Shown in pieces: positions 186 through 63,173 of a DNA stretch of 63,173 bases (its first letter is position 1; every line of letters begins with the position of its first letter). A program made the translations under genes and the position numbers. Source of the DNA: Alphaproteobacteria bacterium (lineage in GTDB: Bacteria > Pseudomonadota > Alphaproteobacteria > RF32 > CAG-239); contig JAFUYI010000006.1 of assembly GCA_017470585.1 (NCBI GenBank), forward strand, positions 1-63,173, given 5' to 3'. Below the pieces are notes generated by a model, which had not been told where the DNA came from, made no database searches, and was given only the letters and a program-made list of their open reading frames with translations.

Positions 186-450
186 TTTACATTACTGATT
201 TTATATGCTAGGATAAAATTGAAGTGAGCGAAAAGCCGCTTTGAGGTGTCAGAACCTCTTTCGTGGTGTCTAAAAGACATAAAATGCTTCTGGCTTGATT
301 ATGGTCGGAAGGCAGGGGAATATAAAGAATACCTTGCACTATTCCACGAAATAGTTCTGAACTTCCGACCACCTCGCGGCTCTAAAAAGCCAACAGGTGG
401 TTTCTTTTTTAAGTTAACAAAAAAAAGAAATTATAAAGGGAGTATAGAAA
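186..450 (+). promoter_or_regulatory. Promoter and structured 5' leader, copy L1 (controls paralog P1)
   Basis: -35 TTTACA 186-191, 17-nt spacer, -10 TAGGAT 209-214. The leader starts at about 221 (GAAGTGAGCG). P1 arms are GAGGTG-TCAGAAC-CCTC-TTTCGTGG (243-266) and CCACGAAA-TA-GTTCTGA (344-360). Other helices: P2 TGTCT/AGACA, P3 CTTCTGGC/GTCGGAAG, P4 GCAGG/CTTGC. These are followed by ACTTCCGACC-ACCTC, the terminator at 368-410 and the SD AAGGGAG. Confidence 0.75.
368..410 (+). terminator. Intrinsic terminator (attenuator) inside leader L1
   Basis: Stem ACCACCT/AGGTGGT with an inner GGCT/AGCC pairing, followed by TTTCTTTTTT. It lies 40 nt upstream of the ATG. Confidence 0.7.
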
Positions 451-921
451 ATGAATAAATATATTTTAATGCTTGGCGTTGCCGGAGTTGCTCTTGGCAG
501 TTACGCAGCCTACGCGGGCAACTCGGCAACAATGACCGTAACAGCCACAATAGCTCATGATGTGAGCATAAATATTGAACAGGAAATGAGTTGCGGAACA
601 ATTACCATTGACCCATCGCAAAGTTTCGGTGCATGGGATTGCAATGATGATGATACTTCAAAAAACGGAGGTGTGATGTCCAAGAGCGGGACAAGAATTG
701 GCAAGATAAGTGCCAATGTTCCGGCAAGCGGATGGCATTGGACCATTACCAAAACCGATTTTCCTTCTCCGTTGGCATGGGCTGGAGGAACACCTGTAAT
801 ATCTGAGAATATTCAATCTGACGGTTTTTATCATGTATATGCATACATTGAATATAACACTGTTCCAGCAGAAGACGATTACAGTGCCACAATAACCGTA
901 AGTTATACTCCAGAAAGTTAG
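451..921 (+). CDS. Secreted DUF4402-like (pilin-like) protein, paralog P1
   Basis: 156 aa. Signal peptide MNKYILMLGVAGVALGSYAAYA, then GNSATMTVTATIAHDVS. C-terminus ..ATITVSYTPES. Belongs to the subtype without the CGGL motif. Confidence 0.9.
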   Translation: MNKYILMLGVAGVALGSYAAYAGNSATMTVTATIAHDVSINIEQEMSCGTITIDPSQSFGAWDCNDDDTSKNGGVMSKSGTRIGKISANVPASGWHWTITKTDFPSPLAWAGGTPVISENIQSDGFYHVYAYIEYNTVPAEDDYSATITVSYTPES

Positions 922-1517: not shown

Positions 1518-2036
1518 ATGCAAAAAGAATTTTCATACCCTTTAATTGTTGCGGAAATTCCGCAAAAAGAACAGCATTATCATATCATCGCCGATGAAAA
1601 ACAAAAAAAATCTTTGGCGCATATCTTAAAAATTCCCGAAGTCAGGGAATTAAAAGCCGATTTTAACCTTAAATCCGATTATAAAACATCGCTCCTTTAT
1701 ATTAACGGGCATATTTCATCCGCATTGGTTTTGCAAAGCGTAATCACGTTAGAAAATTTCTCTAAAAATTATGATTTTGATTTTGAACTTGTTTTTGATA
1801 CCAGAGCCACACTCGATACTCAAAAAGAGGAGGGCAAAGAATGGGATGATAACACTCCGGAAATAGTTATCGGAGGAATGATTGATTTGGGCGATATTGC
1901 CGTTGAGCAGATTGCACTTCGTTTGGATGATTACCCGCGGCAAGACGGTGAAGAGTTTAATTTTAAATCCGAGTTTGATGATAACGACATTAAAAAAGAA
2001 AATCCTTTTGCAGTTTTGGCAAGTTTGAAAAAATAG
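1518..2036 (+). CDS. YceD/DUF177 family protein
   Basis: Acidic C-terminal region ..IDLGDIAVEQIALRLDDYPR.. typical of DUF177. ATG at 1518 with AAGGA upstream. The longer ORF starting at 1269 overlaps bamE. Confidence 0.75.
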   Translation: MQKEFSYPLIVAEIPQKEQHYHIIADEKQKKSLAHILKIPEVRELKADFNLKSDYKTSLLYINGHISSALVLQSVITLENFSKNYDFDFELVFDTRATLDTQKEEGKEWDDNTPEIVIGGMIDLGDIAVEQIALRLDDYPRQDGEEFNFKSEFDDNDIKKENPFAVLASLKK

Positions 2037-2117
2037 GCAAAGGGAAAATTTTATTTTATTGACGTTTGATAAAAACAATACTAATATCACGGCAGTTTTG
2101 ATAAGGGATTTTTGATT

Positions 2118-3293
2118 ATGAAAATAATGTTTATCCGCAACCGTAACGTGTTGAATACCAAATGGCTGGTGCAATACATCAACGCTTTGCAGCAGGCTCG
2201 CCCCGATTATGAAATAGAGGTTGTCTGCGATACTTATAAAAAAGTCGGCAGTGAATTGACGTTTGATGAGAAAGTCAGGCTTATCAATCTAGACGGCAAA
2301 ACCGATAATCCGTTGATTAACATATTTCACCGTATCCGCTGCAAAATAACTCCCGGTTGGTTCCGCCATAAAAAACTCATCGAAAAAGAAAATCCCGATG
2401 TGATTGTGTGCTATTTTCCGACCGATTTGTTTAATGTTACAATGTTTCAGCACCACAACATCCCGATTATAATGATGTTGCATAATGTCCCTGATGTAAT
2501 ACTGGGAAAATATAAAAATAATCCTATTGATGCAACCTTTGACGATTTACACAAAGAGATTCAACCTTTGCGCTGGTTTCATCATCAAACATTCAAACAA
2601 GTGAGTGTATGGCAGGTTTTGCTTTCATCATTTAAACCGCTATTGGACAAAGAATTTGCTCCTAAAAAAATTGTTGCCATTCCTAATATGGTGCAGCAAT
2701 TATCCCCGCAAGATTATGCCGATTTATCGGTAGAAAAGAAAAAAATCATTTATGTTGCCCGCATTGAACGCGATGTTAAACGTCAGCACCGCTTGGTTGA
2801 AGCTTTCGGCAAAGTTGCCAAAGATTTCCCAGATTGGAGTGTAGAATTTTGGGGATTGCATAAATACCCGAAATATGGTGAAGAAATTATGGCAATCGCT
2901 CATTACTACAACATCCAAGATCGCGTTTTCATTAAAGGCTATACTACTGATATTCTTTCAGTATATAAAAATGCGGACATCCACGCATTCCCCAGCAAAT
3001 ATGAGGGGTTTGGCTTGGGCATTGCCGATGGACAGGCATCAGGACTTCCCACACTTGGTTTTGCCGAAGCACCGGCTGTCAATGAACTTATCATCGACGG
3101 ACACAACGGATTTTTAGCTTCCGATATGGAAGACTTTGCCGACAAATTAGCAATTCTTATGAAAGATAAGGAGTTGCGCATAAAATTCGGGCGTAATGCA
3201 ATTGAAGATGTCAAAGCCTTTGCCCCCGATAATGTGATTCGGATGTGGACGAAACTTCTTGATGAAACCGTTGCGGAGAAGCAAAATGCCTAA
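2118..3293 (+). CDS. Glycosyltransferase family 4 (GT-B, E-x7-E)
   Basis: Motif PSKYEGFGLGIADGQASGLPTLGF..NELIIDGHNGFL. ATG at 2118, 9 nt after AAGGGA. Confidence 0.85.
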   Translation: MKIMFIRNRNVLNTKWLVQYINALQQARPDYEIEVVCDTYKKVGSELTFDEKVRLINLDGKTDNPLINIFHRIRCKITPGWFRHKKLIEKENPDVIVCYFPTDLFNVTMFQHHNIPIIMMLHNVPDVILGKYKNNPIDATFDDLHKEIQPLRWFHHQTFKQVSVWQVLLSSFKPLLDKEFAPKKIVAIPNMVQQLSPQDYADLSVEKKKIIYVARIERDVKRQHRLVEAFGKVAKDFPDWSVEFWGLHKYPKYGEEIMAIAHYYNIQDRVFIKGYTTDILSVYKNADIHAFPSKYEGFGLGIADGQASGLPTLGFAEAPAVNELIIDGHNGFLASDMEDFADKLAILMKDKELRIKFGRNAIEDVKAFAPDNVIRMWTKLLDETVAEKQNA

Positions 3294-4260: not shown

Positions 4261-5150
4261 TTAAAGGAATATCCGCGCAGCAAATCTTGTGTTGCCATGG
4301 CTTTTTTGCCTTGGCGTTGGATTTCTTTTATTTCTATCGCGCCGTTTTTGCAGCCGACAAACAAACGAGATGCCCGTTGAATAATTTCGCCGGCAGGGAT
4401 TTTTTCATTGCCGGTAATTGCCCGCAGAATCTTAAAACGTTCTCCTTTATGTTCAAAGTAAACCGCCGGGTAGGGGTTAAACGCCATAATTTTATGCACC
4501 AGCTCTTCGGCACTCATTGAACAATCAAGCAGACTTTCTTCTTTTTCAATTTTGGCGGCATAACAACTCAATTCGTTGTCTTGCGCCTGCGGAGTGATTT
4601 TATCCCAATCACGCAGGGTTTTTAAGACCAAATCTGCTCCCATTAGAGCCAACTTGTCGTGTAAATCTCCTCCGGTTGTTTCCGCGGTTATTTTTATTTC
4701 GCCTTTAAGGAGCATATCTCCGGTATCAAGTCCGGCATCCATTTTCATAATCGTAATCCCGCTTTTGTCATCGCCCGCCTCAATCGCACGCTGTATGGGG
4801 GCAGCTCCCCGCCATCTCGGGAGTAAAGAAGCGTGAATGTTTATACAGCCCAAGGGATAGGCTTCCAGTACCTTTTGCGGCAAAATCAAACCATACGCCG
4901 CCACAACGGCAATGTCGGCTTTCAATTCGGCAAACTTGTGCTGTTCTTCTTCGCTGCGCAGGGTTTTGGGAGTTCTTACTTCAATCCCCCTTTCTTCAGC
5001 CCAGAGGTGAACCGGAGTTTTAAGTATTTTGTTGCCGCGTCCTGAGATTTTCGGTTCTTTGGTATATACCGCTAAAATCTCATGCTCGGAAGAAATTGCT
5101 TTCAAAGCCTCCAAAGCAAATTCCGGTGTTCCCATAAAAACGATTTTCAT
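4257..5150 (-). CDS. fmt: Methionyl-tRNA formyltransferase
   Basis: MKIVFMGTPEFA..INIHASLLPRWRGAAPIQRAI. ATGA overlap with def. Confidence 0.96.
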   Translation of the reverse strand: MKIVFMGTPEFALEALKAISSEHEILAVYTKEPKISGRGNKILKTPVHLWAEERGIEVRTPKTLRSEEEQHKFAELKADIAVVAAYGLILPQKVLEAYPLGCINIHASLLPRWRGAAPIQRAIEAGDDKSGITIMKMDAGLDTGDMLLKGEIKITAETTGGDLHDKLALMGADLVLKTLRDWDKITPQAQDNELSCYAAKIEKEESLLDCSMSAEELVHKIMAFNPYPAVYFEHKGERFKILRAITGNEKIPAGEIIQRASRLFVGCKNGAIEIKEIQRQGKKAMATQDLLRGYSFN

Positions 5151-6169: not shown

Positions 6170-6640
6170 TCAGTGATTGCTGTTTTTTGCCAATTCATCA
6201 ATTTTATTTACAAATTCCTCAAAATCGCCGGCGGTGCGGAAATCTTTATAAACCGAGGCAAAGCGAATATACGCCACTTTATCGAGATTTGCAAGAGCAT
6301 CCATGGCATATTTACCGATAAGTGTTGAGGAAATTTCCGCCTCTCCCGAGCTTTCAAGCTGACGTTGAATGGAATTTACGATTTTTTCAACCCTTTCGGG
6401 GGTAATCGGACGCTTGCGCACTGCCAACTGAATCGAACGCGCCAGTTTGTCGCGGTCAAAACGCACTTTCTCGCCGTTTTTTTTAACCACGGTAAGCTCG
6501 CGCAGCATAACCCTTTCAAAAGTCGTAAACCTTGAACCACACTCCGGACATTCCCGACGGCGGCGGATAGAGGTATTATCCTCACTCAAACGCGAATCTT
6601 TAACTTGGCTTTCAATACATCCGCAAAACGGACACTTCAT
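6170..6640 (-). CDS. nrdR: Transcriptional repressor NrdR
   Basis: [24 protein letters not shown] zinc ribbon plus an ATP-cone domain. Confidence 0.96.
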
Positions 6641-6643
6641 TTT

Positions 6644-7960
6644 TTATCCTTTCAGCAAAACCTCGGTTACTTTGTAAAGTTGTGATGAATATCTTGCTCC
6701 CTTTATAAGGACAATATCGTTATTTTGCAACAATTTATTTTGCAAAAATTGCGCTAATCCCTCTTTATCGGCAAAATAATATTGAGTAATGCGGGGAGGA
6801 AGCATTTTTAACATATCTTTCATTTCTTCCTTAACCCCGATGACAATATCAATTTTGCTTTTCGCTAACAACTCTCCTATGGCAATATGTTCTGCCTTCG
6901 AGGTGTTGCCCAATTCCGCCATTTTGCCTAAAACGGCAATTTTGCGCCCCTGACAGGGCAAGGCATCCAAAGCCTTAACGGCAATTTTCATTGCTTCGGG
7001 TTGTCCCGAATAACTGTCATCAATAAGTGTGTAAGTTCCGCCGCCGTTTAAGGGCAGAAGGTGTTTTTTGCCTCTTCCGTCCAAGGCTCCGAAAGATTTC
7101 AGAGCCGAAGAAGCCTTTGTTTGGTCAAGTCCCAAAGCTTTAACGACTTCCAAAGCCGCCCATGCGTTATAACGCTGAATCTCTCCGTCTTGTTTGAGTT
7201 CCAAAACTCCGTTATAATGATGTTCGGAGCCGAATTTGACGACTTTGGCATTATGTTCCAAAGCTCTTTTCTCTAAAACTTCAGCAAAATTAGTATCCTC
7301 GTTGATTATGGCGGTACCGTTTGGGGGAAGCCCCTCAAAAATTTCTGCTTTGGCTTCGGCAATGCCTTCAAAATTTTCAAAAAATTCGATGTGCATTGGA
7401 TAAACATTGGTAATTAAAGCAATATCCGGTTTTACATGGCGCGTAAGAGCGGCTATTTCGCCTTTGGAACTCATTCCCATTTCAATAACGGCAAATTGTG
7501 CATCCATGGGCATTTCAAGCAAACTTTGCGGTACGCCGATGTGGTTGTTGTGATTGCCTTGCGTGGCGTATGTTTTGGCAAAAACGGACAAGGCGCATTT
7601 TATTTCCTCTTTGGTTGTGGTTTTGCCGGCACTTCCGGTCAAACCGATAACTTTTCCCTTGAAACGTGAACGGTTATAAGCCCCCAGTTTGCCGTAAGCC
7701 TCAACAGTGTTGTTTACCTTAATTTGGCAATTTTGGTTAACCCCGTCAACAAAACGTTCCACCACGGCCAACTCGCAACCGTTGTCAATGGCGGTTTTGA
7801 CAAAGTTATGACCGTCAAAATTTTCTCCCTTGATGGCGACAAACAAAGTCCCCGCGGCGGCTTTGCGGCTGTCGGTTACGATCTCGTTGATAACACAATT
7901 TTTTACTTTTGCGGCGGGATTTAGAATTTCCGTCAATTTTTGCGAAGTTATTTCTTCCAT
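6644..7960 (-). CDS. murF: UDP-N-acetylmuramoyl-tripeptide--D-alanyl-D-alanine ligase
   Basis: VIGLTGSAGKTTTKE P-loop and a Mur ligase C-terminal domain. It lies far from the mraY-ftsZ cluster. Confidence 0.93.
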   Translation of the reverse strand: MEEITSQKLTEILNPAAKVKNCVINEIVTDSRKAAAGTLFVAIKGENFDGHNFVKTAIDNGCELAVVERFVDGVNQNCQIKVNNTVEAYGKLGAYNRSRFKGKVIGLTGSAGKTTTKEEIKCALSVFAKTYATQGNHNNHIGVPQSLLEMPMDAQFAVIEMGMSSKGEIAALTRHVKPDIALITNVYPMHIEFFENFEGIAEAKAEIFEGLPPNGTAIINEDTNFAEVLEKRALEHNAKVVKFGSEHHYNGVLELKQDGEIQRYNAWAALEVVKALGLDQTKASSALKSFGALDGRGKKHLLPLNGGGTYTLIDDSYSGQPEAMKIAVKALDALPCQGRKIAVLGKMAELGNTSKAEHIAIGELLAKSKIDIVIGVKEEMKDMLKMLPPRITQYYFADKEGLAQFLQNKLLQNNDIVLIKGARYSSQLYKVTEVLLKG

Positions 7961-14988: not shown

Positions 14989-15242
14989 TTTACATTGCCG
15001 TTTTTTTATGTTAACTTGAAAAGCGAAGTGAGTGAAAAACCGCTTTGAGGTGTGGAAACCTCTTCTGGGACGTTTAGAAAAACGCAAAACTTCTGGCTGA
15101 TTATGGCCGGAAGGTCGGGGAATATAAAGAATACCCGGCACTGTCTCCCAGAGCAGTTTCCAACTTCCGACCACCTCGCGGGTTTTAATGCCCAGAAGGT
15201 GGTTTTTCTTTATAACGTTAATAAAAGAAGGAAGTTTATAAA
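14989..15242 (+). promoter_or_regulatory. Promoter and structured 5' leader, copy L2 (controls P2)
   Basis: -35 TTTACA 14989-14994, 17 nt, -10 TAACTT 15012-15017. P1 arms TGGAAAC (15053-59) and TCTGGGA (15064-70) pair with TCCCAGA (15146-52) and GTTTCCA (15156-62). P4 is GTCGG/CCGGC. Confidence 0.75.
15170..15210 (+). terminator. Intrinsic terminator (attenuator) inside leader L2
   Basis: ACCACCT/AGGTGGT stem followed by TTTTTCTTT. Confidence 0.7.
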
Positions 15243-15782
15243 ATGAAAAATTATATTTTAATGCTGGGGGTTGCAAGCGTTGCTTTAGGCTCTTACTGTG
15301 CCTATGCAGGAAATTCCGCCACAATGACCGTTACCGCAACAATAGCCCACGATGTAAGCTTGACCAAAACAAGAGATTTAAGCCTTGGCACCATTACCAT
15401 AAATCCGGCAACAGAGGAGGAAACCTATTGGTTCTACAGCGATTCGGGTGTTTATCGTTTAGATTATGGAGATGGTATTGTGTCCGCTTCTAATGCTACT
15501 GTCGGTACTTTTACTGCTAATATCCCAAATCCTTCAGCTTGCAACACGGGAACCGAATCTTGCGGAGGATTAAGTATTACCGGAAACTATGAGGGGTATA
15601 TTGATAACCTCTTTGGCGGAAGTGATGGTGGTAATTCCTGTGATTTTCATATTAAGTACAGCGGAACGGAAAACAGCTTTAATGTGTTTCCTGATCATTG
15701 TTGGATAGATGAAAACAAAATGTCTTCCGTCACCACCGGTTCGCATACCGGAACTTTGACTATTTCCTATACTCCGAGCTGA
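15243..15782 (+). CDS. Secreted DUF4402-like protein, paralog P2
   Basis: 179 aa. ..SYCAYA|GNSATMTVTATIAHDVSL, GTITINP, GTFTANIPNPSAC..CGGL, ..GTLTISYTPS. Confidence 0.92.
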   Translation: MKNYILMLGVASVALGSYCAYAGNSATMTVTATIAHDVSLTKTRDLSLGTITINPATEEETYWFYSDSGVYRLDYGDGIVSASNATVGTFTANIPNPSACNTGTESCGGLSITGNYEGYIDNLFGGSDGGNSCDFHIKYSGTENSFNVFPDHCWIDENKMSSVTTGSHTGTLTISYTPS

Positions 15783-18065: not shown

Positions 18066-18091
18066 AAGGGAGGATATTTCCTCCCTTTTTT
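18066..18091 (+). terminator. Intrinsic terminator of the ferredoxin gene
   Basis: AAGGGAGG-ATATTT-CCTCCCTT followed by TTTTG. Confidence 0.8.
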
Positions 18092-18130: not shown

Positions 18131-18402
18131 TTGATTGACAATAAAACCTATGATATAGTTACTTTGAAACAGGGAAATCCTGTTTTGGGGTGTGATGACC
18201 TCGCAATTGACGTTTATAAAGAAAAACGTAAAAATTCTTCCTGCTATAAAATGGCCGGAAGGTCGGGAAATAGGGGATAACCTAATACTCGGCACTGGTT
18301 CAATTGTCAGTCATCAACTTCCGACCACCTCTAGGGTTTATGCCTCAAAAGGTGGTTTTCTTTTAATGTTAACAAAAAAGAATTATAAAGGAAGTAAGAA
18401 AG
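18131..18402 (+). promoter_or_regulatory. Promoter and structured 5' leader, copy L3 (controls P3)
   Basis: -35 TTGATT 18131-36, 17 nt, -10 TATAGT 18154-59. P0 is AAACAGG/CCTGTTT. P1 arms TGATGAC..CAATTGA pair with TCAATTG..GTCATCA. P2 is ACGTTT/AAACGT. Confidence 0.75.
18324..18364 (+). terminator. Intrinsic terminator (attenuator) inside leader L3
   Basis: ACCACCT/AGGTGGT stem followed by TTTTCTTTT. The loop sequence is identical to that of L7. Confidence 0.7.
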
Positions 18403-18924
18403 ATGAACAAATATATTTTAATGATAGGTCTTGCAAGCGTTGCCCTTGGCTCGTATTGTGCGTATGCGGGAAATTCGGCAACAATGACCGTTACCGCCAC
18501 GATTGCCCACGACGTGAGCTTGAGTGTTACGCAAGATTTAGACCTTGGCACCATTACCATCAATCCGGCATTTGACGGAGCAGCTACAGTGTGGCATTAC
18601 AGAGCTTCGGGAGTAATTAGTTTCGATCCTCAAGGAGCTATCGTATCGGCAGGAAACGCAACAGTTGGCACTTTTACTGCTAATATTCCTAATCCGGCCG
18701 ATTGTGATGGAACTGCTGACTGCGGAGGATTGAGTGTTGATGATACTATTGGCAATTTCTTCGGCGGAAGTGATTATACTAATAATTGTGACTTTCAAAT
18801 TCAATACAGCGGATCAGCTAATACATTTAAGGTTTATCCTGATGTTTGCTATATAGGCGATATATCCAAAGTCACTACCGGCACGCATTCGCATACTTTA
18901 ACCATCTCTTACAATCCGGAATAA
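18403..18924 (+). CDS. Secreted DUF4402-like protein, paralog P3
   Basis: 173 aa. Same N-terminal strand, GTITINP, CDGTADCGGL, ..HTLTISYNPE. Confidence 0.92.
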   Translation: MNKYILMIGLASVALGSYCAYAGNSATMTVTATIAHDVSLSVTQDLDLGTITINPAFDGAATVWHYRASGVISFDPQGAIVSAGNATVGTFTANIPNPADCDGTADCGGLSVDDTIGNFFGGSDYTNNCDFQIQYSGSANTFKVYPDVCYIGDISKVTTGTHSHTLTISYNPE

Positions 18925-20812: not shown

Positions 20813-20907
20813 GAACAGCCGGCGGAAAACGCCGGCTGTTCATCGTTACAGGAAGTTTATTTTTTATCTTTATTTTTATTCCGGACTGTAAGAGATGGTA
20901 AAAGTAT
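20813..20907. repeat. Right arm of the ~95-bp inverted repeat (terminator hairpin 20813-20841 plus P4 3' end)
   Basis: Reverse complement of 18893-18987. Confidence 0.85.
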
Positions 20908-21400
20908 ACGAACGCGAGCCGGGAGTGACTGTAGATGCATCTTCTATTATGCAACCATCAGGCATCACCTCAAAGCTATTTCCACTTCCGTATTTGTTGT
21001 AAATAGCAAACCAGCAATAATTGCTATTATCACTGCCAAAAATTTTAACCACGCCACCCTCCTCTAGCTGTAGTCCTCCGCACGACCAATTTGCCATATT
21101 GCAATCTTCCGGATTGGGGATATTGGCGGTAAAAGTACCGATGGTGGCATTATCTGCAGAAACAACTGCATATCCAGTGTCATAACTAGGCACACCCGCA
21201 TTATAATACCACTCTGTATCCGTTCCGGCATAAGCTGGGTTAATGGTAATTGTACCCATATTTATATCGCCGGTTTTGGTAAGGCTAACATCGTGGGCAA
21301 TTGTGGCGGTTACGGTCATTGTTGCCGAATTTCCGGCGTAGGCACAATAAGAACCAAGGGCAACCCCTGCAACACCGAGCATTAAAATATATTTGTTCAT
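20876..21400 (-). CDS. Secreted DUF4402-like protein, paralog P4
   Basis: 174 aa. Same N-terminal strand, GTITINP, CNMANWSCGGL, ..YTFTISYSPE. Confidence 0.92.
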   Translation of the reverse strand: MNKYILMLGVAGVALGSYCAYAGNSATMTVTATIAHDVSLTKTGDINMGTITINPAYAGTDTEWYYNAGVPSYDTGYAVVSADNATIGTFTANIPNPEDCNMANWSCGGLQLEEGGVVKIFGSDNSNYCWFAIYNKYGSGNSFEVMPDGCIIEDASTVTPGSRSYTFTISYSPE

Positions 21401-21670
21401 ATTCTTTACTTCCTTTATAATTTTCTTTTTCTGTTAACACTAAAAAGAAAACCACCTTTGGGCGTAAAACCCTGAAGGCGGTTGGAAGCTCAAAACTACT
21501 AACTGATGTAGTGCAAGGTATTCTTTATATTCCCCTGCCTTCCAACCATAAAGATCGGATATATACCGATTTACGTTTCGGTACAAACGTCAGTTACGAG
21601 GTTTTGAGACCTCAAAGCGGTTTTTCACTCGCTTCAAAGTCAATATAACATAAGTTTTATTGATTGGCAA
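21401..21670 (-). promoter_or_regulatory. Promoter and structured 5' leader, copy L5 (controls P4)
   Basis: On the minus strand: -35 TTGCCA (21665-70), 17 nt, -10 TATATT (21642-47). The leader starts at about 21635 (GAAGCGAGTG). P1 arms CTCAAAAC..TAACTGA pair with TCAGTTA..GTTTTGAG. There is an extra hairpin ATCGG/CCGAT. Confidence 0.75.
21442..21482 (-). terminator. Intrinsic terminator (attenuator) inside leader L5
   Basis: RNA ACCGCCT/AGGTGGT (one G-U pair) followed by TTTTCTTTTT. Confidence 0.65.
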
Positions 21671-26834: not shown

Positions 26835-27100
26835 TTGATTTAAGCAAAAAACTGTTTTAGTATGAATCTTGAAGTGAAGAATTTTCACTTTGAGGTGTGA
26901 CAGCCCCTATCAAAGCGTTTTTAAGAAAAACGTAAAAATTCTTCCTGCTATAATGGTTGGAAGGCAAAGGAATAAGAGATACCTCAAATACTTTGCACTG
27001 TTCTTTGATACAGCTGTCAACTTCCAGCCACCTCGCGGAGTACATCTCCAACGGGTGGTTTCTTTTTATAACCGCAAAGAAACCATAAAAGGAAGTTTAG
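26835..27100 (+). promoter_or_regulatory. Promoter and structured 5' leader, copy L4 (controls divergent paralog P5)
   Basis: -35 TTGATT 26835-40, 17 nt, -10 TAGTAT 26858-63. P0 is AAGTGAA/TTCACTT. P1 arms TGACAGC..TATCAAAG pair with CTTTGATA..GCTGTCA. P4 is GCAAA/TTTGC with a distal GAG/CTC hairpin. Confidence 0.75.
27028..27067 (+). terminator. Intrinsic terminator (attenuator) inside leader L4
   Basis: CCACC/GGTGG stem with an inner GGAG/CTCC pairing, followed by TTTCTTTTT. Confidence 0.65.
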
Positions 27101-27655
27101 ATGACAAACAAAACTTTTTTAATTCTTTTATTATTAGGCGTATCATATACCGCCTATAATGTAAGCGCAGTGTCCGAAAATTTTGCAATCTCCACTACTA
27201 TCGACCACGAAATTGTTTTAAGCAATTTCAAAACCGCAAGTGCGGATGCAAATTTAGATGTAACCGGAAATATAAGCCTCGGCACAATTTACATTAACCC
27301 CAACGGAACCGAAGAGTCTTGGTGGTCTTATGATGATGCGGGGCAGGTTGCTGGTTTGAACGGAGATATTGTTGTTAAAGCTGATAACATCAATTTCGGT
27401 ACCTTTAGCGCAAATGTTTCCAATCCGCAAGCTTGCAACGGAAAAAGTACATCTTGTGCGGGTTTATCCACTCGGAGACATGTCGTGATGTTCGGGGCAA
27501 CGTATTGGTATGATAGTTATTGTAATTTTTACATAAAATACAGCGGGAGCGGCAATGTATTTAAGGTATTCCCGCATTGCATAATATACCATGTTTCATC
27601 TGTCAGCAGAGGCTATCACAGCCAGACTTTTGACATCTCCTATACGGCGGAATAA
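27101..27655 (+). CDS. Divergent member of the DUF4402-like family, paralog P5
   Basis: 184 aa. Keeps GTIYINP, GTFSANVSNPQAC..C.GL and ..TFDISYTAE. The signal peptide and N-terminal strand differ (VSENFAISTTIDHEIVL). Confidence 0.88.
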   Translation: MTNKTFLILLLLGVSYTAYNVSAVSENFAISTTIDHEIVLSNFKTASADANLDVTGNISLGTIYINPNGTEESWWSYDDAGQVAGLNGDIVVKADNINFGTFSANVSNPQACNGKSTSCAGLSTRRHVVMFGATYWYDSYCNFYIKYSGSGNVFKVFPHCIIYHVSSVSRGYHSQTFDISYTAE

Positions 27656-28459: not shown

Positions 28460-28996
28460 TTAACTCGGGTTATACTCAATGGTCAACGTTCCCGAATGCG
28501 AGCCGGCGGTAACGGAAGAGATATTGGATATCCAGCAATTTTGAGGAAATATCTTGAAGACATTTCTGCTTCCGCTATATTGAATATAAAAGGAACAGGC
28601 ATTACTCTCATCATTTCCGCCAAAGAAATTAGAAATATCATAGGAGTCATTTCCTGTTACACTCAATCCTCCACAGGAATTATTGAAAACATTGCAATCT
28701 TCCGGATTGGGAATATTAGCAGTAAAAGTACCGACTGTGACATTAGGAGCAGACACAAGCGCACCTTGAGAGGCAACAGATATTCCGGCACTGTCATAAC
28801 CCCAATCTGTATCATTACCATCATAAGCTGGGTTAATGGTAATTGTACCCATATCTATATCTTGAATAACGCTCAAACTAACATCGTGGGCGATTGTTGC
28901 GGTAACGGTCATTGTGGCGGAATTGCCGGCGTAGGCACAGTATGAACCTATGGAAACTGCGGCAACGCCGAGTAATAAAATATATTTTTTCATCAT
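28460..28996 (-). CDS. Secreted DUF4402-like protein, paralog P6
   Basis: 178 aa. Same N-terminal strand, GTITINP, CNVFNNSCGGL, ..GTLTIEYNPS. Confidence 0.92.
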   Translation of the reverse strand: MMKKYILLLGVAAVSIGSYCAYAGNSATMTVTATIAHDVSLSVIQDIDMGTITINPAYDGNDTDWGYDSAGISVASQGALVSAPNVTVGTFTANIPNPEDCNVFNNSCGGLSVTGNDSYDISNFFGGNDESNACSFYIQYSGSRNVFKIFPQNCWISNISSVTAGSHSGTLTIEYNPS

Positions 28997-29247
28997 CTAA
29001 ACTTCCTTATCTATTGTTAACAAAGAAAATCACCCCGACAAATAGACGAGGTGATTGGAAGTTTCAGACTGTCATGTATAACAGTGTATGGTATTTGGTT
29101 GAAACCTTATTTCCATACCTTCCAACCATAATACGGTCAGAAGTAGTTTTATGTCTTTGCGGACAATACATGAGAGGTCTGAAAACCTCAAAGTGACCTT
29201 TCATTCACTTCATTTTCTACCCTAGCATAAAAAATCTTTTATGTAAA
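28997..29247 (-). promoter_or_regulatory. Promoter and structured 5' leader, copy L6 (controls P6)
   Basis: On the minus strand: -35 TTTACA (29242-47), 17 nt, -10 TAGGGT (29219-24). The leader starts at about 29211. P1 arms TTTCAGAC..TCATGTAT pair with ATACATGA..GTCTGAAA. P4 is GTATGG/CCATAC with a distal GGTT/AACC hairpin. The palindrome GCAAAATTTTGC lies at 29248-29259. Confidence 0.75.
29022..29055 (-). terminator. Intrinsic terminator (attenuator) inside leader L6
   Basis: RNA ATCACC/GGTGAT stem followed by TTTTCTTTG. Confidence 0.6.
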
Positions 29248-32673: not shown

Positions 32674-33195
32674 TTAACTTGCGGTATAAGAAATGGTGAT
32701 GGTTTGTTCATGTGTTCCGGCAACGGTGGACTCTGGAGACTCAAAACCACAACTACTCGGCACAACTTTAAATCTGTTTGAGCTGTCGTGGACTATGTAA
32801 AAACTGCATGCATTACTGTCTTCAGGATTGCCGCTTAAAATACCAAATATTTCACTCGGCACACTCAAACCTCCGCAAGTATAACTTGAGCCGTCACAAG
32901 CCGAAGGATTGGCAATGTTGGCGGTAAAAGTCCCCGGAGTTGCTGATGTTGCCGCAATTATGGAATCATTTTTACTTTTAACCGTTCCGTCCAAGTTATA
33001 AGATACACTACCTATACTCATATCTGCCGGATTGATGGTGATTGTACCGATATTTAAATCGGTAACGCCGCCAAGGCTCACATCATGGGCAATTGTCGCG
33101 GTAACGGTCATTGTTGCCGAATTTCCCGCATACGCACAATACGAGCCAAGGGCAATTCCTGCAACGCCGAGTAATAAAATATAATTTTTTATCAT
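32674..33195 (-). CDS. Secreted DUF4402-like protein, paralog P7
   Basis: 173 aa. Same N-terminal strand, GTITINP, CDGSSYTCGGL, ..QTITISYTAS. Confidence 0.92.
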   Translation of the reverse strand: MIKNYILLLGVAGIALGSYCAYAGNSATMTVTATIAHDVSLGGVTDLNIGTITINPADMSIGSVSYNLDGTVKSKNDSIIAATSATPGTFTANIANPSACDGSSYTCGGLSVPSEIFGILSGNPEDSNACSFYIVHDSSNRFKVVPSSCGFESPESTVAGTHEQTITISYTAS

Positions 33196-33444
33196 CTAAA
33201 CTTCCTTATCTATTGTTAACAAAGAAAACCACCTTTTGAGGCATAAACCCTAGAGGTGGTCGGAAGCTCGAAACTGTGATGTAAAACAGTGCCGGGTATT
33301 CTTTATATTTCCCGACCTTCCAACCATAGCACGGTTAGAAACAATTTTATGTCTTGCCTGACATTACATCAGAGGCTTCGAGACCTCAAAGCGGTTTTTC
33401 ACTCACTTCAAAAAAAATATACCATAAGTTCTATGCAAAATCAA
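33196..33444 (-). promoter_or_regulatory. Promoter and structured 5' leader, copy L7 (controls P7)
   Basis: On the minus strand: -35 TTGATT (33439-44), 17 nt, -10 TATATT (33416-21). The leader starts at about 33409. P1 arms CTCGAAGC..TGATGTAA pair with TTACATCA..GTTTCGAG. The SD and spacer are identical to those of L6. Confidence 0.75.
33221..33260 (-). terminator. Intrinsic terminator (attenuator) inside leader L7
   Basis: RNA ACCACCT/AGGTGGT stem followed by TTTTCTTTG. Confidence 0.7.
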
Positions 33445-37637: not shown

Positions 37638-38111
37638 TTACGGATGATAGGTAATCATAATGCTGCCGAAGTCATGCGTTCCCGCGCTCGGCGCACCGCC
37701 GGAATAGTTTATTTGATAATCAACATCAAATTCGTTATCTGTTCCTGTAGTTACTACACTAAAACCATTAATCCTTAACGTATCATGAGTAAGCTCACTC
37801 GGCGATATGGTAAAACTGTTTTCTGCGGCATATTCATCATCGGGAACCGTTGCCGTAAATGCTCCCCGAACGGCTGTGCACATTCCTAAATAATTTTCGG
37901 GATTGCTATCCCCTGCAGTACACCAACCTTCCCCAATACTTGTTACCGCCGGATCGACCACTGCGTAAATGTCAATATCATTAACCTTGGTTAAGCTTAC
38001 ATCGTGAGCAATGGTTGCGGTAACGCTCATTGTCGCCGAGTTGCCGGCATAGGCACAATATGAGCCTAGAGCAACCGCGGCAACGCCAAGTAATAAAATA
38101 TATTTGTTCAT
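37638..38111 (-). CDS. Secreted DUF4402-like protein, paralog P8
   Basis: 157 aa. GNSATMSVTATIAHDVSL. Divergent body, ..GSIMITYHP. Belongs to the subtype without CGGL. Confidence 0.9.
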   Translation of the reverse strand: MNKYILLLGVAAVALGSYCAYAGNSATMSVTATIAHDVSLTKVNDIDIYAVVDPAVTSIGEGWCTAGDSNPENYLGMCTAVRGAFTATVPDDEYAAENSFTISPSELTHDTLRINGFSVVTTGTDNEFDVDYQINYSGGAPSAGTHDFGSIMITYHP

Positions 38112-38381
38112 ATTAAAACTTCCTTTCTTTAGTTTATTATAACTTTAATAAAAGAAACCACCTCTTGGAGTATTTCTCCGCGAGGTGGTCGGAAGTTCAC
38201 AACTATCAGTTATAATAGTCCTGCGTATTTGTGAAATCACTTATTTCGCAAGCTTCCGACCATAAGCCGGATACAAACCAAATAACGTTTTGGTAAACGA
38301 TAGCTGAGAGGTTGTGACACCTCAAAGCAGAATTTTCCCTGCTTCGATTTTTAAGCTAGCATAAAAAATCTTTTATGTCAA
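38112..38381 (-). promoter_or_regulatory. Promoter and structured 5' leader, copy L8 (controls P8)
   Basis: On the minus strand: -35 TTGACA (38376-81), 17 nt, -10 TAGCTT (38353-58). P0 is AAGCAG/CTGCTT. P1 arms TCACAAC..TCAGCTA pair with TAACTGA..GTTGTGA (one mismatch). P4 is CTTGCG/CGCAGG with a distal GTGA/TCAC hairpin. Confidence 0.72.
38151..38189 (-). terminator. Intrinsic terminator (attenuator) inside leader L8
   Basis: RNA ACCACCT/AGGTGGT stem with an inner GGAG/CTCC pairing, followed by TTTCTTTT. Confidence 0.7.
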
Positions 38382-42427: not shown

Positions 42428-42901
42428 TTAACTCGGAGTATAAGTAAAACGAACGGTTGAAGTATAGGTCGCTTCAGCAGGTACGGATTCGTATTTAATA
42501 CGCCCCTCAACAGGACAAGTGGTCGCTGTGCATTCAGCAGTGTGTACTCTAGGATCATTTTCATTGTGCCACGATACCGGTGCGGCAAAAGGGGTAACAA
42601 TTTCTTTTGTGAAACTGAAACCCGAAGCCGGAAAAGTCCCGACAATAGTTCCATACTGATCATCGGTTATTGATAATACTCCACCATCAAAGGTAGCCTG
42701 GACTATGCCAACGGCAATATTTCCTTCCGCGATACTCGGGTTGATGGTAACAGTGCCGAAGCTTAAAGGCTGTCCGACCGATAAACTCACATCGTGAGCA
42801 ATCGTTGCCGTTACGGTCATTGTTGCCGAATTGGTGGCATATGCGCAATATGAACCAAGCGCGACTGTTGCAACGCCTAACATTAAAAAATATTTATTCA
42901 T
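42428..42901 (-). CDS. Secreted DUF4402-like protein, paralog P9
   Basis: 157 aa. TNSATMTVTATIAHDVSL, GTVTINP, ..TVRFTYTPS. Belongs to the subtype without CGGL. Confidence 0.9.
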   Translation of the reverse strand: MNKYFLMLGVATVALGSYCAYATNSATMTVTATIAHDVSLSVGQPLSFGTVTINPSIAEGNIAVGIVQATFDGGVLSITDDQYGTIVGTFPASGFSFTKEIVTPFAAPVSWHNENDPRVHTAECTATTCPVEGRIKYESVPAEATYTSTVRFTYTPS

Positions 42902-43160
42902 TACAAAAACTTCCTTTTTTTATTAAAGTTATAATAAAGAAACCACCTTTTGGCTCTTGAAAGCCGCGAGGTGGCTGGAAGCTGACAACTGTTGTAAGGA
43001 ACAGTGTCGGGTATTCTTTATATTCCCCGACCTTCCAACCATAGAACGGTTAGAAGCAATTTTCTGTCTTGTTCGGACACCTTACAAGAGGCTGTCAGAC
43101 CTCAAAACGAAATTTTCTCCGTTTCGGAATTAAACTAGCACATTTTTAAACTTAAATCAA
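42902..43160 (-). promoter_or_regulatory. Promoter and structured 5' leader, copy L9 (controls P9)
   Basis: On the minus strand: -35 TTGATT (43155-60), 17 nt, -10 TAGTTT (43132-37). P0 is AAACG/CGTTT. P1 arms CTGACAGC..TTGTAAGG pair with CCTTACAA..GTTGTCAG (one G-U). P4 is GTCGG/CCGAC. Confidence 0.75.
42934..42975 (-). terminator. Intrinsic terminator (attenuator) inside leader L9
   Basis: RNA CCACCT/AGGTGG stem with an inner GGCT/AGCC pairing, followed by TTTCTTTATT. Confidence 0.65.
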
Positions 43161-43192
43161 GCAAAAAAATTAAATATCTTTATATAATGTCA

Positions 43193-43224
43193 AAAACCCG
43201 CGGGAGAATGTTCCCGCGGGTTTT
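43193..43224 (-). terminator. Intrinsic terminator downstream of ftsZ
   Basis: AAAACCCGCGGGA-loop-TCCCGCGGGTTTT. It is symmetric, so it could act in both directions. Confidence 0.85.
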
Positions 43225-43239
43225 AGTGAAAGAGTTTTT

Positions 43240-63000: not shown

Positions 63001-63173
63001 ATTAAAAACTTCCTTCTTTTATTAACGTCATAAAGAAAAACCACCTTTTGGGACGTATCCCGCGAGGTGGTCGGAAGCTCTAAACTGACACTTGAATCAG
63101 TGCAAAGTATTTGAGGTATCTCTTATTCCTTTGCCTTCCGGCCATTATAGCAGGAAGAATTTTTACGTTTTTC
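63001..63173 (-). promoter_or_regulatory. Structured 5' leader, copy L10 (its 5' part is cut off by the window edge)
   Basis: Contains P2 (..AAACGT), P3, P4 (GCAAA/TTTGC, identical to L4), 3' P1 arms ..TTCAAGTG..GTTTAGAG, then CTTCCGACCACCTC and the terminator. Confidence 0.7.
63032..63071 (-). terminator. Intrinsic terminator (attenuator) inside leader L10
   Basis: RNA ACCACCT/AGGTGGT stem followed by TTTTTCTTT. Confidence 0.7.

Follow-up and report, generated by a model that had tools for sequence, protein, structure and literature searches.

Several described systems control gene expression by masking a Shine-Dalgarno site (SD) or by forming a terminator through alternative RNA pairings, and these served as our points of comparison. 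In translational riboswitch platforms such as the E. coli thiM TPP riboswitch, the SD is masked by an anti-SD strand, which is alternatively held by an anti-anti-SD strand that is part of the closing helix of the sensor domain (PMC2018614). In trp-type attenuators and transcriptional riboswitches, overlapping 1:2, 2:3 and 3:4 pairings decide between terminator and antiterminator. c-di-GMP-I/II and cGAMP riboswitches are found upstream of pilin, adhesin and surface-protein genes, with many copies per genome. Finally, sRNA-Xcc1 (Rfam RF02221) is described as an integron-borne, trans-acting sRNA of beta-, gamma- and deltaproteobacteria, which in Xanthomonas integron cassettes also lies upstream of a gene, symE (bioRxiv 10.1101/2025.06.18.660453). 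Here, we describe a roughly 200-nt, heavily base-paired leader RNA that precedes every copy of a very large family of secreted, possibly pilin-like genes in a gut alphaproteobacterium, and other surface-protein genes in other gut bacteria. It reaches the threshold of no Rfam 15 family and is best read as a new riboswitch-like leader class, for which no trigger was identified. As in thiM, it contains an anti-SD (strand S3) and an anti-anti-SD (strand S2), but an additional layer, strand S1, competes for S2, the fold is unrelated, and neither TPP nor any other riboswitch family matches. In the lineage of the analysed DNA, S1:S2 together with S3 bound to the 3' arm of a terminator, versus S2:S3, reproduces the 1:2+3:4 versus 2:3 scheme of attenuators; however, no leader peptide was seen in the sequences read by eye, the decision cannot depend on ribosome stalling, and many homologues lack the terminator altogether. 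The regulon, with its pilins, adhesin-like and outer-membrane proteins, resembles that of the second-messenger riboswitches, yet no sequence or structure match to GEMM-I, c-di-GMP-II or any other Rfam riboswitch was found even at E <= 10, and a second-messenger ligand is pure conjecture.

We analysed a window of 63,173 nt (contig JAFUYI010000006.1, assembly GCA_017470585.1), in which a first-pass annotation had reported ten copies of a promoter-driven, structured 5' leader, each in front of a paralogous ORF. This observation was confirmed: all ten modules are present at the reported positions, and both nhmmer and a covariance model find exactly ten in the window, nine of which are complete while one is cut by the window end. 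The -35 boxes located by script start at 186, 14989, 18131, 26835, 21670, 29247, 33444, 38381 and 43160, identical to the earlier numbers, and all nine promoter-like sites have a 17-nt spacer and a TAnnnT -10 box. Eight of the nine carry a TGn extended -10, and all sit 27-29 nt upstream of the first conserved hairpin. Each promoter is followed by a leader of about 215 nt, a terminator, an SD and an ORF of 156-184 aa that belongs to one paralog family. The earlier interpretation, a new cis-regulatory RNA forming a four-way junction and acting as a riboswitch or attenuator, is partly supported: the leader is truly structured and has its own promoter, it forms a four-way junction in one fold, followed by an intrinsic terminator and then the SD, it is absent from Rfam at curated thresholds and it has riboswitch/attenuator-like logic, whereas several of its details, discussed below, required correction.

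Positions of the leader modules in the window and of the parts of module L2 (CM, covariance model; numbering is that of the 63,173-nt stretch)
Positions	Strand	Feature	Observations
186..450	+	Leader module L1 (promoter, leader, terminator and SD), upstream of ORF 451-921	nhmmer 2.3e-53; CM hit 240-372 at 136 bits; promoter TTTACA-17-TAGGAT; S2 303-311; S3 362-370
14989..15242	+	Leader module L2, upstream of ORF 15243-15782	CM hit 15044-15174, 128.9 bits
14989..15017	+	L2 promoter-like site: -35 TTTACA (14989-14994), 17-nt spacer, -10 TAACTT (15012-15017)	Same hexamers, spacing and distance to the RNA in all nine complete copies and in other lineages; inferred only, without transcription start data
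15025..15046	+	P0, 5'-terminal hairpin	Compensatory changes in 5 of 8 pairs among the window copies; present in most other lineages, absent in most CAUTSC01 copies
15047..15062	+	Hairpin Pa: GAGG 15047-50 pairs with CCUC 15059-62; its loop La, UGGAAA 15053-58, is the 5' strand of H1	Pa 98% paired, 3 of 4 pairs compensatory; H1 100% paired, 6 of 6 pairs compensatory
15063..15070	+	Linker, 5' strand of long-range helix H2 (UUCUGGGA)	Pairs with the hpB loop 15146-15153; cognate partners average 7.5 nt of perfect WC pairing, non-cognate partners 4.5 nt
15071..15084	+	P2 hairpin (CGUUU...AACG)	Pairs vary CG/UA and UA/CG among copies
15090..15098	+	S1 (CUUCUGGCU), competitor strand that pairs with S2 (P3 of the first-pass annotation)	Local S1:S2 hairpin predicted in 32 of 32 sequences; 93.6% paired, 14+14 compensatory cells at the two variable S2 positions
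15105..15113	+	S2 (GGCCGGAAG), SD mimic and central switch strand, preceded by the conserved AU	At least 97% conserved as aUGG..GGAAG; pairs alternatively with S1 or S3
15114..15139	+	hpA (P4 of the first-pass annotation): 6-bp stem enclosing the conserved internal loop G-R-AAUA / AAUAC, with an optional distal hairpin	Stem 99.6% paired, 5 of 6 pairs compensatory; the loop nucleotides are the only invariant ones that no pairing explains
15141..15156	+	hpB: stem CUGU/GCAG; loop (15145-15152) is the 3' strand of H2	3 of 4 stem pairs compensatory, in both the hand-curated alignment and a CM alignment whose model did not contain the stem
15157..15162	+	J (UUUCCA), 3' strand of H1	
15164..15172	+	S3 (CUUCCGACC), anti-SD and 5' foot of the terminator; pairs with S2 in the presumed ON fold	S2:S3 99.4% paired, 12+16 compensatory cells; together with A15163 pairs with GGAAGU 15230-15235
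15169..15211	+	Intrinsic terminator: hairpin whose 5' arm GACCACCUC overlaps S3, followed by a U-tract	Present in all ten window copies and in five other alphaproteobacterial copies; absent in CAUTSC01 and the termite-gut copies
15230..15235	+	SD region GGAAGU, complementary to ACUUCC of S3	With the S3-to-AUG segment folded alone, S3:SD pairs in 10 of 10 window copies and in most other lineages; in folds of the complete leaders, the S3 5' half pairs with downstream sequence at P >= 0.85 in 6 of 9 window copies
15243..15782	+	Regulated ORF, a 179-aa secreted paralog	
18131..18402	+	Leader module L3, upstream of ORF 18403-18924	
26835..27100	+	Leader module L4, upstream of ORF 27101-27655	
21401..21670	-	Leader module L5, upstream of ORF 20876-21400	
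28997..29247	-	Leader module L6, upstream of ORF 28460-28996	
33196..33444	-	Leader module L7, upstream of ORF 32674-33195	
38112..38381	-	Leader module L8, upstream of ORF 37638-38111	
42902..43160	-	Leader module L9, upstream of ORF 42428-42901	
63001..63173	-	Leader module L10, 5' part cut by the window end, upstream of ORF 62455-63000	CM positions 35-141, 79.9 bits

A significant match to an existing Rfam family had been named in advance as the outcome that would remove the novelty of the element, and we searched the window against Rfam 15. No family, cis-regulatory RNAs, T-box, leaders and riboswitches included, matched at the gathering score, and at E <= 10 only scattered sub-threshold hits appeared, of which none but sRNA-Xcc1 recurred. 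The Xcc1 matches scored 32.9, 31.1 and 28.1 bits in the window and 34.0, 32.6 and 27.0 bits at three loci elsewhere (L037, L011 and the second site of L016), six copies from three lineages in total, and thus lie below the gathering threshold of 53 bits. The resemblance is confined to the 3' core (S2-hpA-hpB-J-S3), which aligns over the whole 87-position model (positions 1-87) with the same three-way junction: a 9-bp closing helix, a first hairpin with an AAUA-rich loop, a second hairpin, a 6-nt junction strand and an unpaired, C-rich 3' tail. The closing helix (S2:S3), hpA and hpB each covary in our leaders. Xcc1 as modelled lacks the 5' half (P0, Pa, the H1/H2 partners, P2 and S1). The genomic setting also does not correspond to that of Xcc1, which lies in integron cassettes, transposons or plasmids upstream of symE-type genes, since our modules lie singly between chromosomal housekeeping genes (SufB, HtpG, RNase E, GyrA, S1, FtsZ) and upstream of exported proteins. 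No bona fide Xcc1 locus was examined for S1-like or anti-SD features; four symE plasmid loci, reached via SymE homologues, had none and carry SymR, isrA or Ssr1 matches instead and no Xcc1. The motif pattern had no match in IMG/VR, arguing against a viral origin. Literature searches on DUF4402, pilin riboswitch candidates and sRNA-Xcc1 found no description of the motif, although large catalogues of unnamed candidates such as PMC8040213 were not compared sequence by sequence.

Having found no catalogued family, we next asked how widely the element occurs. Fifty-two copies were found, 25 of them in 145 kb of this one genome and the rest in other Alphaproteobacteria MAGs, a proteobacterial MAG and termite-gut Deferribacteraceae, and orientation and spacing to the ORF are fixed in 52 of 52 copies. 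In the 145 kb, 25 leaders and 25 paralogs show a one-to-one association. The RNA is not tied to these paralogs, however, as it precedes type IVb pilins, an OMP, lipoproteins and LRR proteins in other bacteria. Although these downstream proteins are unrelated, nearly all carry export signals, which argues for a shared trans signal rather than autoregulation. The first-pass label 'DUF4402-like' for the paralogs is not supported: no Pfam family reached its curated cut-off, no DUF4402 hit was found at E <= 1, and the best sub-threshold hit was SCPU on one paralog only (E = 0.0013; 19.5 bits against a cut-off of 22.4). Of 283 homologues found, none of the 120 examined has a precomputed Pfam domain, and an AF2 model resembles Caf1, FimA and Csu pilins only weakly (E >= 0.04, TM 0.35-0.4).

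To test whether the leader is maintained as RNA structure, we examined folding energies and covariation. The L2 leader folds with a z-score of -5.5 against dinucleotide shuffles, and RNAalifold on nine copies gave 27 of 54 pairs with compensatory changes. On 38 leaders from at least six lineages, 99.6% of cells are paired and 29 of 39 pairs are compensatory. A lack of significant covariation had been put forward as grounds for dismissing the element, but 0 of 500 column shuffles reached the observed score. G.U pairs outnumber A.C cells by 100-153 to 3-5, so the structure belongs to the sense-strand RNA. The helices P0, P2, P3 and P4 of the first-pass annotation all show compensatory changes. 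Its long closing helix P1 is real in its inner parts, which we call H1 and H2 and which are perfectly Watson-Crick complementary runs of 6-8 nt and 7-10 nt in almost every copy, with 28-32 different sequences; these two long-range helices tie the 5' domain to the 3' three-way junction. In contrast, the outermost segment of P1 (GAGGU:ACUUC), which RNAalifold also predicted, shows no compensatory change, breaks in 8 of 32 sequences and was rejected; GAGG instead pairs locally with CCUC in the covarying hairpin Pa, whose loop forms H1. An extension of hpA by AG:CU, predicted by RNAalifold, was likewise rejected, since by our reading of the sequences rather than by a systematic count the termite-gut copies (CU to CC) break it but keep the hpB stem. 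Registers of S1, H2 and La in our alignment A5 were chosen by best complementarity, a bias that is only partly offset by the comparison of cognate and non-cognate H2 partners and by an independent check, in which Pa, S2:S3 and hpB were 95.9% paired, with covariation, on an alignment fitted to a model that did not contain them.

The blocks that the first-pass annotation had described as single-stranded (CUUUGAGGUG, UAUGGYYGGAAGG and ACUUCCRRCCACCUC) are base-paired strands, belonging to two mutually exclusive helices of which S2:S3 had been missed. The central strand S2 (GGNNGGAAG) is an SD mimic and pairs either with S1 just upstream or with S3 (CUUCCNNNC) about 50 nt downstream, and both alternatives covary at the same two S2 positions. 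S3 is an anti-SD, and sequestration of the SD by S3 is the most conserved output, while the terminator is present only in some lineages. All ten window copies have CCACCUC...GGUGG followed by a T-rich run such as TTTTCTTT, that is, a GC-rich hairpin immediately followed by a U-tract; a generic scanner misses these terminators because its loop limit is 8 nt. The expression platform thus varies under a constant sensor, with a terminator plus S3:SD in the window and in five other alphaproteobacterial copies, and S3:SD only, 26-46 nt from the AUG, in CAUTSC01 and termite-gut copies. Nested thermodynamic models, applied to the nine complete window copies, put the leaders in the S1:S2 state, read as OFF, at P = 0.75-1.0. 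However, these models do not include H1 and H2 together with S2:S3 and hence do not score the pseudoknotted alternative, so that the energy comparison leaves the balance between the two folds undecided and bistability is not demonstrated.

Collectively, these data lead us to propose, with moderate confidence, that the element is a cis-acting, riboswitch-like conformational switch in the 5' leader of genes for exported or surface proteins. In this model, transcription starts at the promoter of the module, and the RNA forms P0, Pa with its loop paired to J, the linker paired to the hpB loop, P2, and hpA with its conserved internal loop. Three near-repeats of SD/anti-SD sequence would then decide the output. 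When S1 holds S2, S3 would be free, its 5' half would pair with the real SD and, in the lineage of the window, its 3' half would also become the foot of the terminator, turning the gene OFF. When S2:S3 forms, it would close a junction of hpA, hpB and H1, leaving the SD free and depriving the terminator of its bottom 4 base pairs, turning the gene ON. Our analysis demonstrates that the helices exist, that the two pairings of S2 exclude each other, that S3 is complementary to the SD and that it overlaps the terminator, whereas it is an inference that cells actually toggle between the folds and that a signal decides which one wins. Our best guess for this signal is a small molecule or second messenger, possibly recognised with the help of the hpA loop and the junction, but the sequence gives neither the direction of control nor the identity of the signal, ligand binding was not assayed, and no transcript or probing data were included. 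The downstream genes give no metabolic clue and suggest no candidate ligand. Moreover, only about 11 nucleotides, those of the hpA loop, are conserved without a pairing explanation, which is few for a small-molecule pocket, although junction geometry could supply the rest, and S1:S2 could be merely a transient folding helper rather than one state of a regulated switch.

We considered whether the same two-state RNA might instead be flipped by a protein, either a global regulator of the CsrA, ProQ or Hfq type or a dedicated factor, recognising the hpA internal loop and/or the GGA-containing S2 and SD. The only unexplained invariant nucleotides form a symmetric internal loop of a kind that proteins often bind, surface proteins are typical targets of global post-transcriptional regulators, and high copy number per genome would suit titration of a protein. 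On the other hand, the GGA motifs lie inside helices rather than in hairpin loops, no candidate protein gene is linked to the modules in the window or loci examined, and the elaborate double long-range architecture exceeds what known CsrA-type sites need, so that we regard this alternative as unlikely, though it is the strongest of those considered. Less likely still is a constitutive structural 5' UTR, in which the fold would stabilise an abundant mRNA and set a fixed translation level, and S1:S2 would only shield the SD-like S2 co-transcriptionally until S3 is made. P0 sits at the predicted 5' end, stabilising 5' UTRs occur in genes for abundant surface or fibre proteins (ompA), and there is no ligand clue; yet an intrinsic terminator and an SD-sequestering helix inside a purely stabilising UTR would be self-defeating, S1 is maintained by compensatory change in every lineage, the predicted equilibrium state keeps S1:S2 and not S2:S3, and the platform type varies while the sensor is constant.

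The weak resemblance to sRNA-Xcc1 and the strong terminator of the window copies raised the question of whether transcription normally ends at the terminator and the ~190-nt product acts in trans, as has been claimed for sRNA-Xcc1, with the position upstream of the ORF being secondary. This appears improbable, given that many homologues have no terminator and run straight into the SD 26-46 nt later, that orientation and spacing to the ORF are fixed, that S3 is complementary to its own SD, and that no separate promoter-like site is conserved between terminator and ORF in our alignment A1. We consider it very unlikely that the conservation is a DNA-level or coding artefact, reflecting gene conversion, a mobile cassette shared by the paralogs or a leader peptide, even though the module duplicates together with the paralogs, the first ~40 codons of the ORF are also nearly invariant, and the AUG of the AUGG at S2 is invariant. 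Homogenisation cannot produce dozens of compensatory double changes, H1 and H2 are the least conserved parts (34-56% identity) and yet pair in nearly every copy, the G.U/A.C asymmetry points to sense-strand RNA, and the same RNA precedes unrelated genes in other phyla. With regard to a leader peptide, no purine-rich, SD-like stretch was seen upstream of this AUG, the only invariant one, in the sequences read, and its frame is broken by hpA insertions that are not multiples of three and ends after 9 codons in L3 and 17 in L1, as read by eye and not scanned systematically.

If it is a regulated switch, the element would be one of the most highly reiterated cis-regulatory RNAs in any genome, with 25 copies in 145 kb and probably more than 85 per genome, and would control the surface coat of uncultured gut symbionts from ruminants, rabbits and termites. 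It offers a clean, testable orphan-riboswitch candidate with a built-in read-out, since S1, S2 and S3 mutants make opposite predictions, it is a natural example of a three-layer SD-mimic switch, and it may shed light on the poorly understood sRNA-Xcc1 family. A covariance model of the motif would mark surface-protein genes in MAGs whose proteins have no Pfam domain. A further reading, which our data do not rule out but which we consider doubtful, is a new riboswitch class whose pseudoknotted sensor binds a cellular signal, for example a cyclic-dinucleotide-type second messenger or a host-derived cue, and which through the SD-mimic strand swap gates in one stroke a family of about 100 possibly pilin-like surface-protein genes (at least 5% of a small gut alphaproteobacterial genome), as well as type IVb pilins, OMPs and lipoproteins in other gut bacteria. 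In a still bolder variant, the copy-specific H1/H2 sequences would let individual copies flip independently, which would give RNA-level variation of the surface coat.

Not every copy conforms to the complete model. Two copies, L063, which lacks H1, and L069, which has a broken H1 and may be a chimeric contig, do not fit fully and were left out of alignment A5. A divergent copy at L016 (6525-6697), on the other hand, changes S2 and S3 together (GGAUG/CAUCC) and keeps H1, a 10-bp H2, an S1-like competitor and a terminator overlapping S3.

We first examined the ten copies of the module in the window, nine of which are complete and one of which is cut by the window end. The observation made in the first-pass annotation held, and all ten copies lie exactly where it had placed them. 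Each complete copy has a -35-like hexamer, a 17-nt spacer and a TAnnnT -10, with a TGn extension in eight of nine, and this promoter-like site always sits 27-29 nt upstream of the first conserved hairpin. A leader of ~215 nt follows, which ends in a GC-rich hairpin with a U-tract, then an A/U-rich spacer, the Shine-Dalgarno site (SD) AAGGAAGU and an ORF of 156-184 aa. The ORFs are paralogs that share a near-invariant signal peptide and first ~20 mature residues but have a variable body. The flanking genes are ordinary housekeeping genes, namely SufB, HtpG, a CcrM-like methylase, RNase E, GyrA, ribosomal protein S1 and FtsZ, and the modules are therefore scattered singly through a chromosome, most likely alphaproteobacterial. 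The closest database relatives of the paralogs are annotated 'MAG: Alphaproteobacteria bacterium', and the contig comes from the ENA metagenome assembly ERZ28654714. GC-rich palindromic hairpins flanked by A-runs and T-runs look like bidirectional terminators insulating the leader promoters from neighbouring genes; the one downstream of ftsZ gives weak His_leader hits on both strands. The coordinates of the ORFs and of the other features considered here are collected in the table.

Coordinates of the paralog ORFs, divergent leaders and neighbouring features
Sequence	Position	Strand	Feature
Window	451-921	+	Paralog ORF
Window	15243-15782	+	Paralog ORF
Window	18403-18924	+	Paralog ORF
Window	27101-27655	+	Paralog ORF
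Window	20876-21400	-	Paralog ORF
Window	28460-28996	-	Paralog ORF
Window	32674-33195	-	Paralog ORF
Window	37638-38111	-	Paralog ORF
Window	42428-42901	-	Paralog ORF
Window	62455-63000	-	Paralog ORF
Window	15053-15070 and 15146-15162		Example of the copy-specific strands of helices H1 and H2
Window	15047-15052 vs 15172-15177 (and equivalents)		GAGGUG (Pa 5' strand plus 2 nt) and terminator 5' arm CACCUC
Window	43188-43229 and 18066-18087		Palindromic hairpins AAAAACCCGCGGGAGAAUGUUCCCGCGGGUUUU, downstream of ftsZ, and AAGGGAGGATATTTCCTCCCTT
Window	57284-58219	+	ORF of 311 aa with a weak hit to the paralog HMM
L016 (Alphaproteobacteria MAG)	6525-6697	+	Second, divergent leader
L069 (1.2-kb contig from another sample)	266-462	+	Leader with broken H1
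L063 (metagenome copy)	4655-4800	-	Leader without detectable H1
L073 (another scaffold of the window's MAG)	1-743 and 1956-2593		VirB4/TrbE and HicAB toxin-antitoxin genes

A match to an existing Rfam family had been named in advance as the result that would take away the novelty of the RNA, but no Rfam 15 family reaches its gathering score anywhere in the window. When permissive thresholds were used, the only family that recurs is sRNA-Xcc1 (RF02221), which scores 28-33 bits on three window copies and 27-34 bits on copies from two other lineages, against a gathering score of 53. The match covers only the 3' third of the leader and proposes a three-way junction whose closing helix is GGYYGGAAG paired with CUUCCRRCC, which was the first hint of a pairing that the first-pass annotation had not seen.

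To find relatives elsewhere, we scanned GTDB genomes with a pattern restricted to the central strand S2 and the loops of hairpin hpA, and JGI metagenomes with a longer version of it, extended 3' into hpA and the start of hairpin hpB. True and chance matches were then sorted with nhmmer and a covariance model (CM). The true homologues are in three other 'Alphaproteobacteria bacterium' MAGs (roe deer, rabbit, and one of unstated source), in an 'uncultured proteobacterium' MAG (CAUTSC01) with at least 11 copies, in two termite-gut Deferribacteraceae MAGs, and on eight metagenome contigs, which group with the termite-gut Deferribacteraceae copies. None was found in IMG/VR. Further scaffolds of the window's own MAG were reached through paralog proteins and add 15 units, so that in 145 kb of this genome there are 25 paralogs and 25 leaders, one to one. 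The protein search lists, by our count, roughly 85 distinct paralogs carrying one locus-tag prefix (IJ689_); tag numbers run up to about 7975, which suggests about 1600 genes, and the family would then be at least 5% of the gene complement.

We next asked whether the leader shows the covarying base pairs on which the structural claim had been made to depend. RNAalifold on the nine window leaders gives 54 pairs, 27 of them with compensatory changes. Three independent alignments were then scored: a plain MAFFT alignment of 32 sequences (A4), an alignment of 38 sequences built from hand-parsed elements separated by artificial constant anchors (A5), and 44 matches (43 true and one weak probable false positive) aligned to a CM that encodes only the nested 'OFF' helices (A7). 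The supported helices are P0, a 5'-terminal hairpin; Pa, in which GAGG pairs with CCUC (98% paired, 3 of 4 pairs compensatory); H1, in which the six loop nucleotides of Pa pair with a segment J just 5' of strand S3 (100% paired, 6 of 6 pairs compensatory); H2, in which the linker after Pa pairs with the loop of hpB over 7-10 bp, all pairs being compensatory; P2; hpA, which is 99.6% paired; and hpB, with 3 of 4 pairs compensatory. Since the registers of H1 and H2 were chosen by complementarity, we added a control in which cognate and non-cognate partners were compared. Cognate partners give perfect Watson-Crick runs averaging 7.2 nt for H1 and 7.5 nt for H2, whereas mismatched partners give 4.3 and 4.5 nt. 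Pa, hpB and S2:S3 were absent from the CM, yet on its alignment they are still 95.9% paired, with covariation that no shuffle reaches. On the other hand, the outer part of the long closing helix P1 proposed in the first-pass annotation (GAGGU:ACUUC) fails, since it shows no double change and breaks in 8 sequences when the 5' G changes, whereas the same G covaries with the C of Pa. G.U cells outnumber A.C cells by 100-153 to 3-5, and the structure therefore belongs to the sense-strand RNA and not to DNA or an antisense transcript. The in silico analysis does not tell whether Pa and hpB coexist with full-length H1 and H2. Within one genome the H1 and H2 strands are almost private to each copy, at 34-56% pairwise identity with 14-15 distinct sequences of 16, while always pairing, and the neighbouring strands are 81-94% identical; this may be neutral drift, or selection against trans-pairing among many co-expressed leaders.

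The central strand S2 (GGNNGGAAG) has two perfect partners, S1, which lies 3-11 nt upstream and corresponds to the P3 helix of the first-pass annotation, and S3 (CUUCCNNNC), which lies about 50 nt downstream. The two variable S2 positions take six dinucleotide states across the lineages (UC, UU, CC, CU, CA and UA), and both S1 and S3 follow them. S1:S2 is 93.6% paired, with 14+14 compensatory cells, and S2:S3 is 99.4% paired, with 12+16. One strand cannot hold both partners at once, and selection therefore maintains two mutually exclusive folds. S3 has two further partners. Its 5' half, ACUUCC, is complementary to the SD of the gene, which is GGAAGU in the window and several MAGs, AGGGAG in CAUTSC01, and CUGGAGG or UGGGAG in termite-gut copies. 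When the S3-to-AUG segment was folded alone, S3 paired with the SD in 10 of 10 window copies and in most other lineages, and in folds of the complete leaders the S3 5' half pairs with downstream sequence at P >= 0.85 in 6 of 9 window copies. In the window and five other alphaproteobacterial copies, the 3' half of S3 is the foot of the intrinsic terminator. In five of the ten window copies, GAGGUG is also a perfect complement of the 5' arm of this terminator, CACCUC, which is a possible extra antiterminator pairing but is not conserved in lineages without a terminator.

In the logic that results, S1:S2 together with S3:SD and the terminator would mean OFF, whereas S2:S3 would free the SD and remove the bottom 4 bp of the terminator, which would mean ON. 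Nested thermodynamic models, which do not score the pseudoknotted ON fold, place all nine window leaders in the S1:S2 state (P = 0.75-1.0). The divergent L016 copy (CM 38.9 bits) changes S2 and S3 together to GGAUG and CAUCC, and keeps H1, a 10-bp H2, an S1-like competitor in a shifted register and a terminator overlapping S3. It lies upstream of a Cys-rich BspA-LRR secreted protein, and the family is therefore broader than our search pattern could find. Two copies deviate. L063, which groups with the termite-gut sequences, scores only 29.7 bits, has no detectable H1 and carries mismatches in both S2:S3 and S1:S2; it lies upstream of a 729-aa secreted protein and may be degenerating. In L069, the 3' part (hpB 3' strand and J) does not match its own Pa loop, so that H1 is broken, and this leader is either a chimeric short-read assembly of paralogs or a natural recombinant.

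We then addressed the question of what is regulated. Downstream genes differ by lineage and encode type IVb pilins (PilS_N/Bundlin, with a prepilin N-terminus), an OMP beta-barrel or opacity-type protein, BspA-type LRR proteins, RCC1-repeat, DUF2846 and Listeria-Bacteroides-repeat lipoproteins, and Cys-rich secreted paralogs. Nearly all carry export signals. The paralogs of the window have no Pfam domain. An AlphaFold model (pLDDT 84) is a beta-sandwich whose best PDB matches are weak (E >= 0.04, TM 0.35-0.4), and many of them, including the top eight, are chaperone-usher fibre subunits (Caf1, FimA, Csu, Saf and Pap). The invariant N-terminal NSATMTVTATIAHDVSL, which the paralogs share along with the signal peptide, resembles a chaperone-usher donor strand, although this point is inference, and no chaperone or usher gene was seen in the window or the loci examined.

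The helices, the two alternative partners of S2, the complementarity of S3 to the SD and its overlap with the terminator come from the analysis itself, whereas a regulated switch is what we infer from them. Our preferred reading, which we hold with moderate confidence, is a riboswitch-like leader in which a pseudoknotted sensor domain decides whether the SD mimic S2 is held by S1 or by the anti-SD S3. The interpretation of the first-pass annotation, a riboswitch-like or attenuator-like leader that, together with the long closing helix P1, fits a four-way junction followed by an intrinsic terminator and then the SD, is partly supported: its P3 is one arm of the switch, but S2:S3 was missed and the outer part of P1 fails. 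One constant sensor combined with different expression platforms, unrelated downstream proteins and a predicted default OFF state point to a regulated switch with a shared trans signal, rather than to autoregulation or a mere stabiliser, although the sequence gives neither the direction of control nor the identity of the signal. The only invariant nucleotides without a pairing explanation are the hpA internal loop (G-R-AAUA / AAUAC) and the AU before S2, which are candidates for the recognition site or for a tertiary contact. A protein-operated version of the same switch is possible but less likely, and we regard a constitutive structural UTR with S1 as a folding helper as doubtful. An independent Xcc1-like sRNA appears unlikely, and DNA-level or leader-peptide artefacts very unlikely.

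The logic is that of SD / anti-SD / anti-anti-SD platforms such as thiM (PMC2018614) and of 1:2/2:3/3:4 attenuators, but the fold matches no catalogued family. The 3' core may be a distant relative of sRNA-Xcc1, although it fails the threshold of that family and differs in genomic setting. Our literature search found no paper describing the motif, with large anonymous catalogues of candidate RNAs left outside its reach, and we therefore consider it a new class of switch-like leader that stands out for its double long-range architecture, its three-layer SD mimicry and its copy number. When SymE-family toxin genes on enterobacterial and Eleftheria plasmids were examined (loci L074-L077), they were found to carry antisense SymR, isrA or Ssr1-type RNAs and not sRNA-Xcc1, and the Xcc1-symE link reported for Xanthomonas integrons is therefore not general. 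In the window, the 311-aa ORF gives a weak hit (E = 7e-5) to the paralog HMM although no leader precedes it, and on scaffold L073 the VirB4/TrbE and HicAB genes lie next to leader-paralog units.
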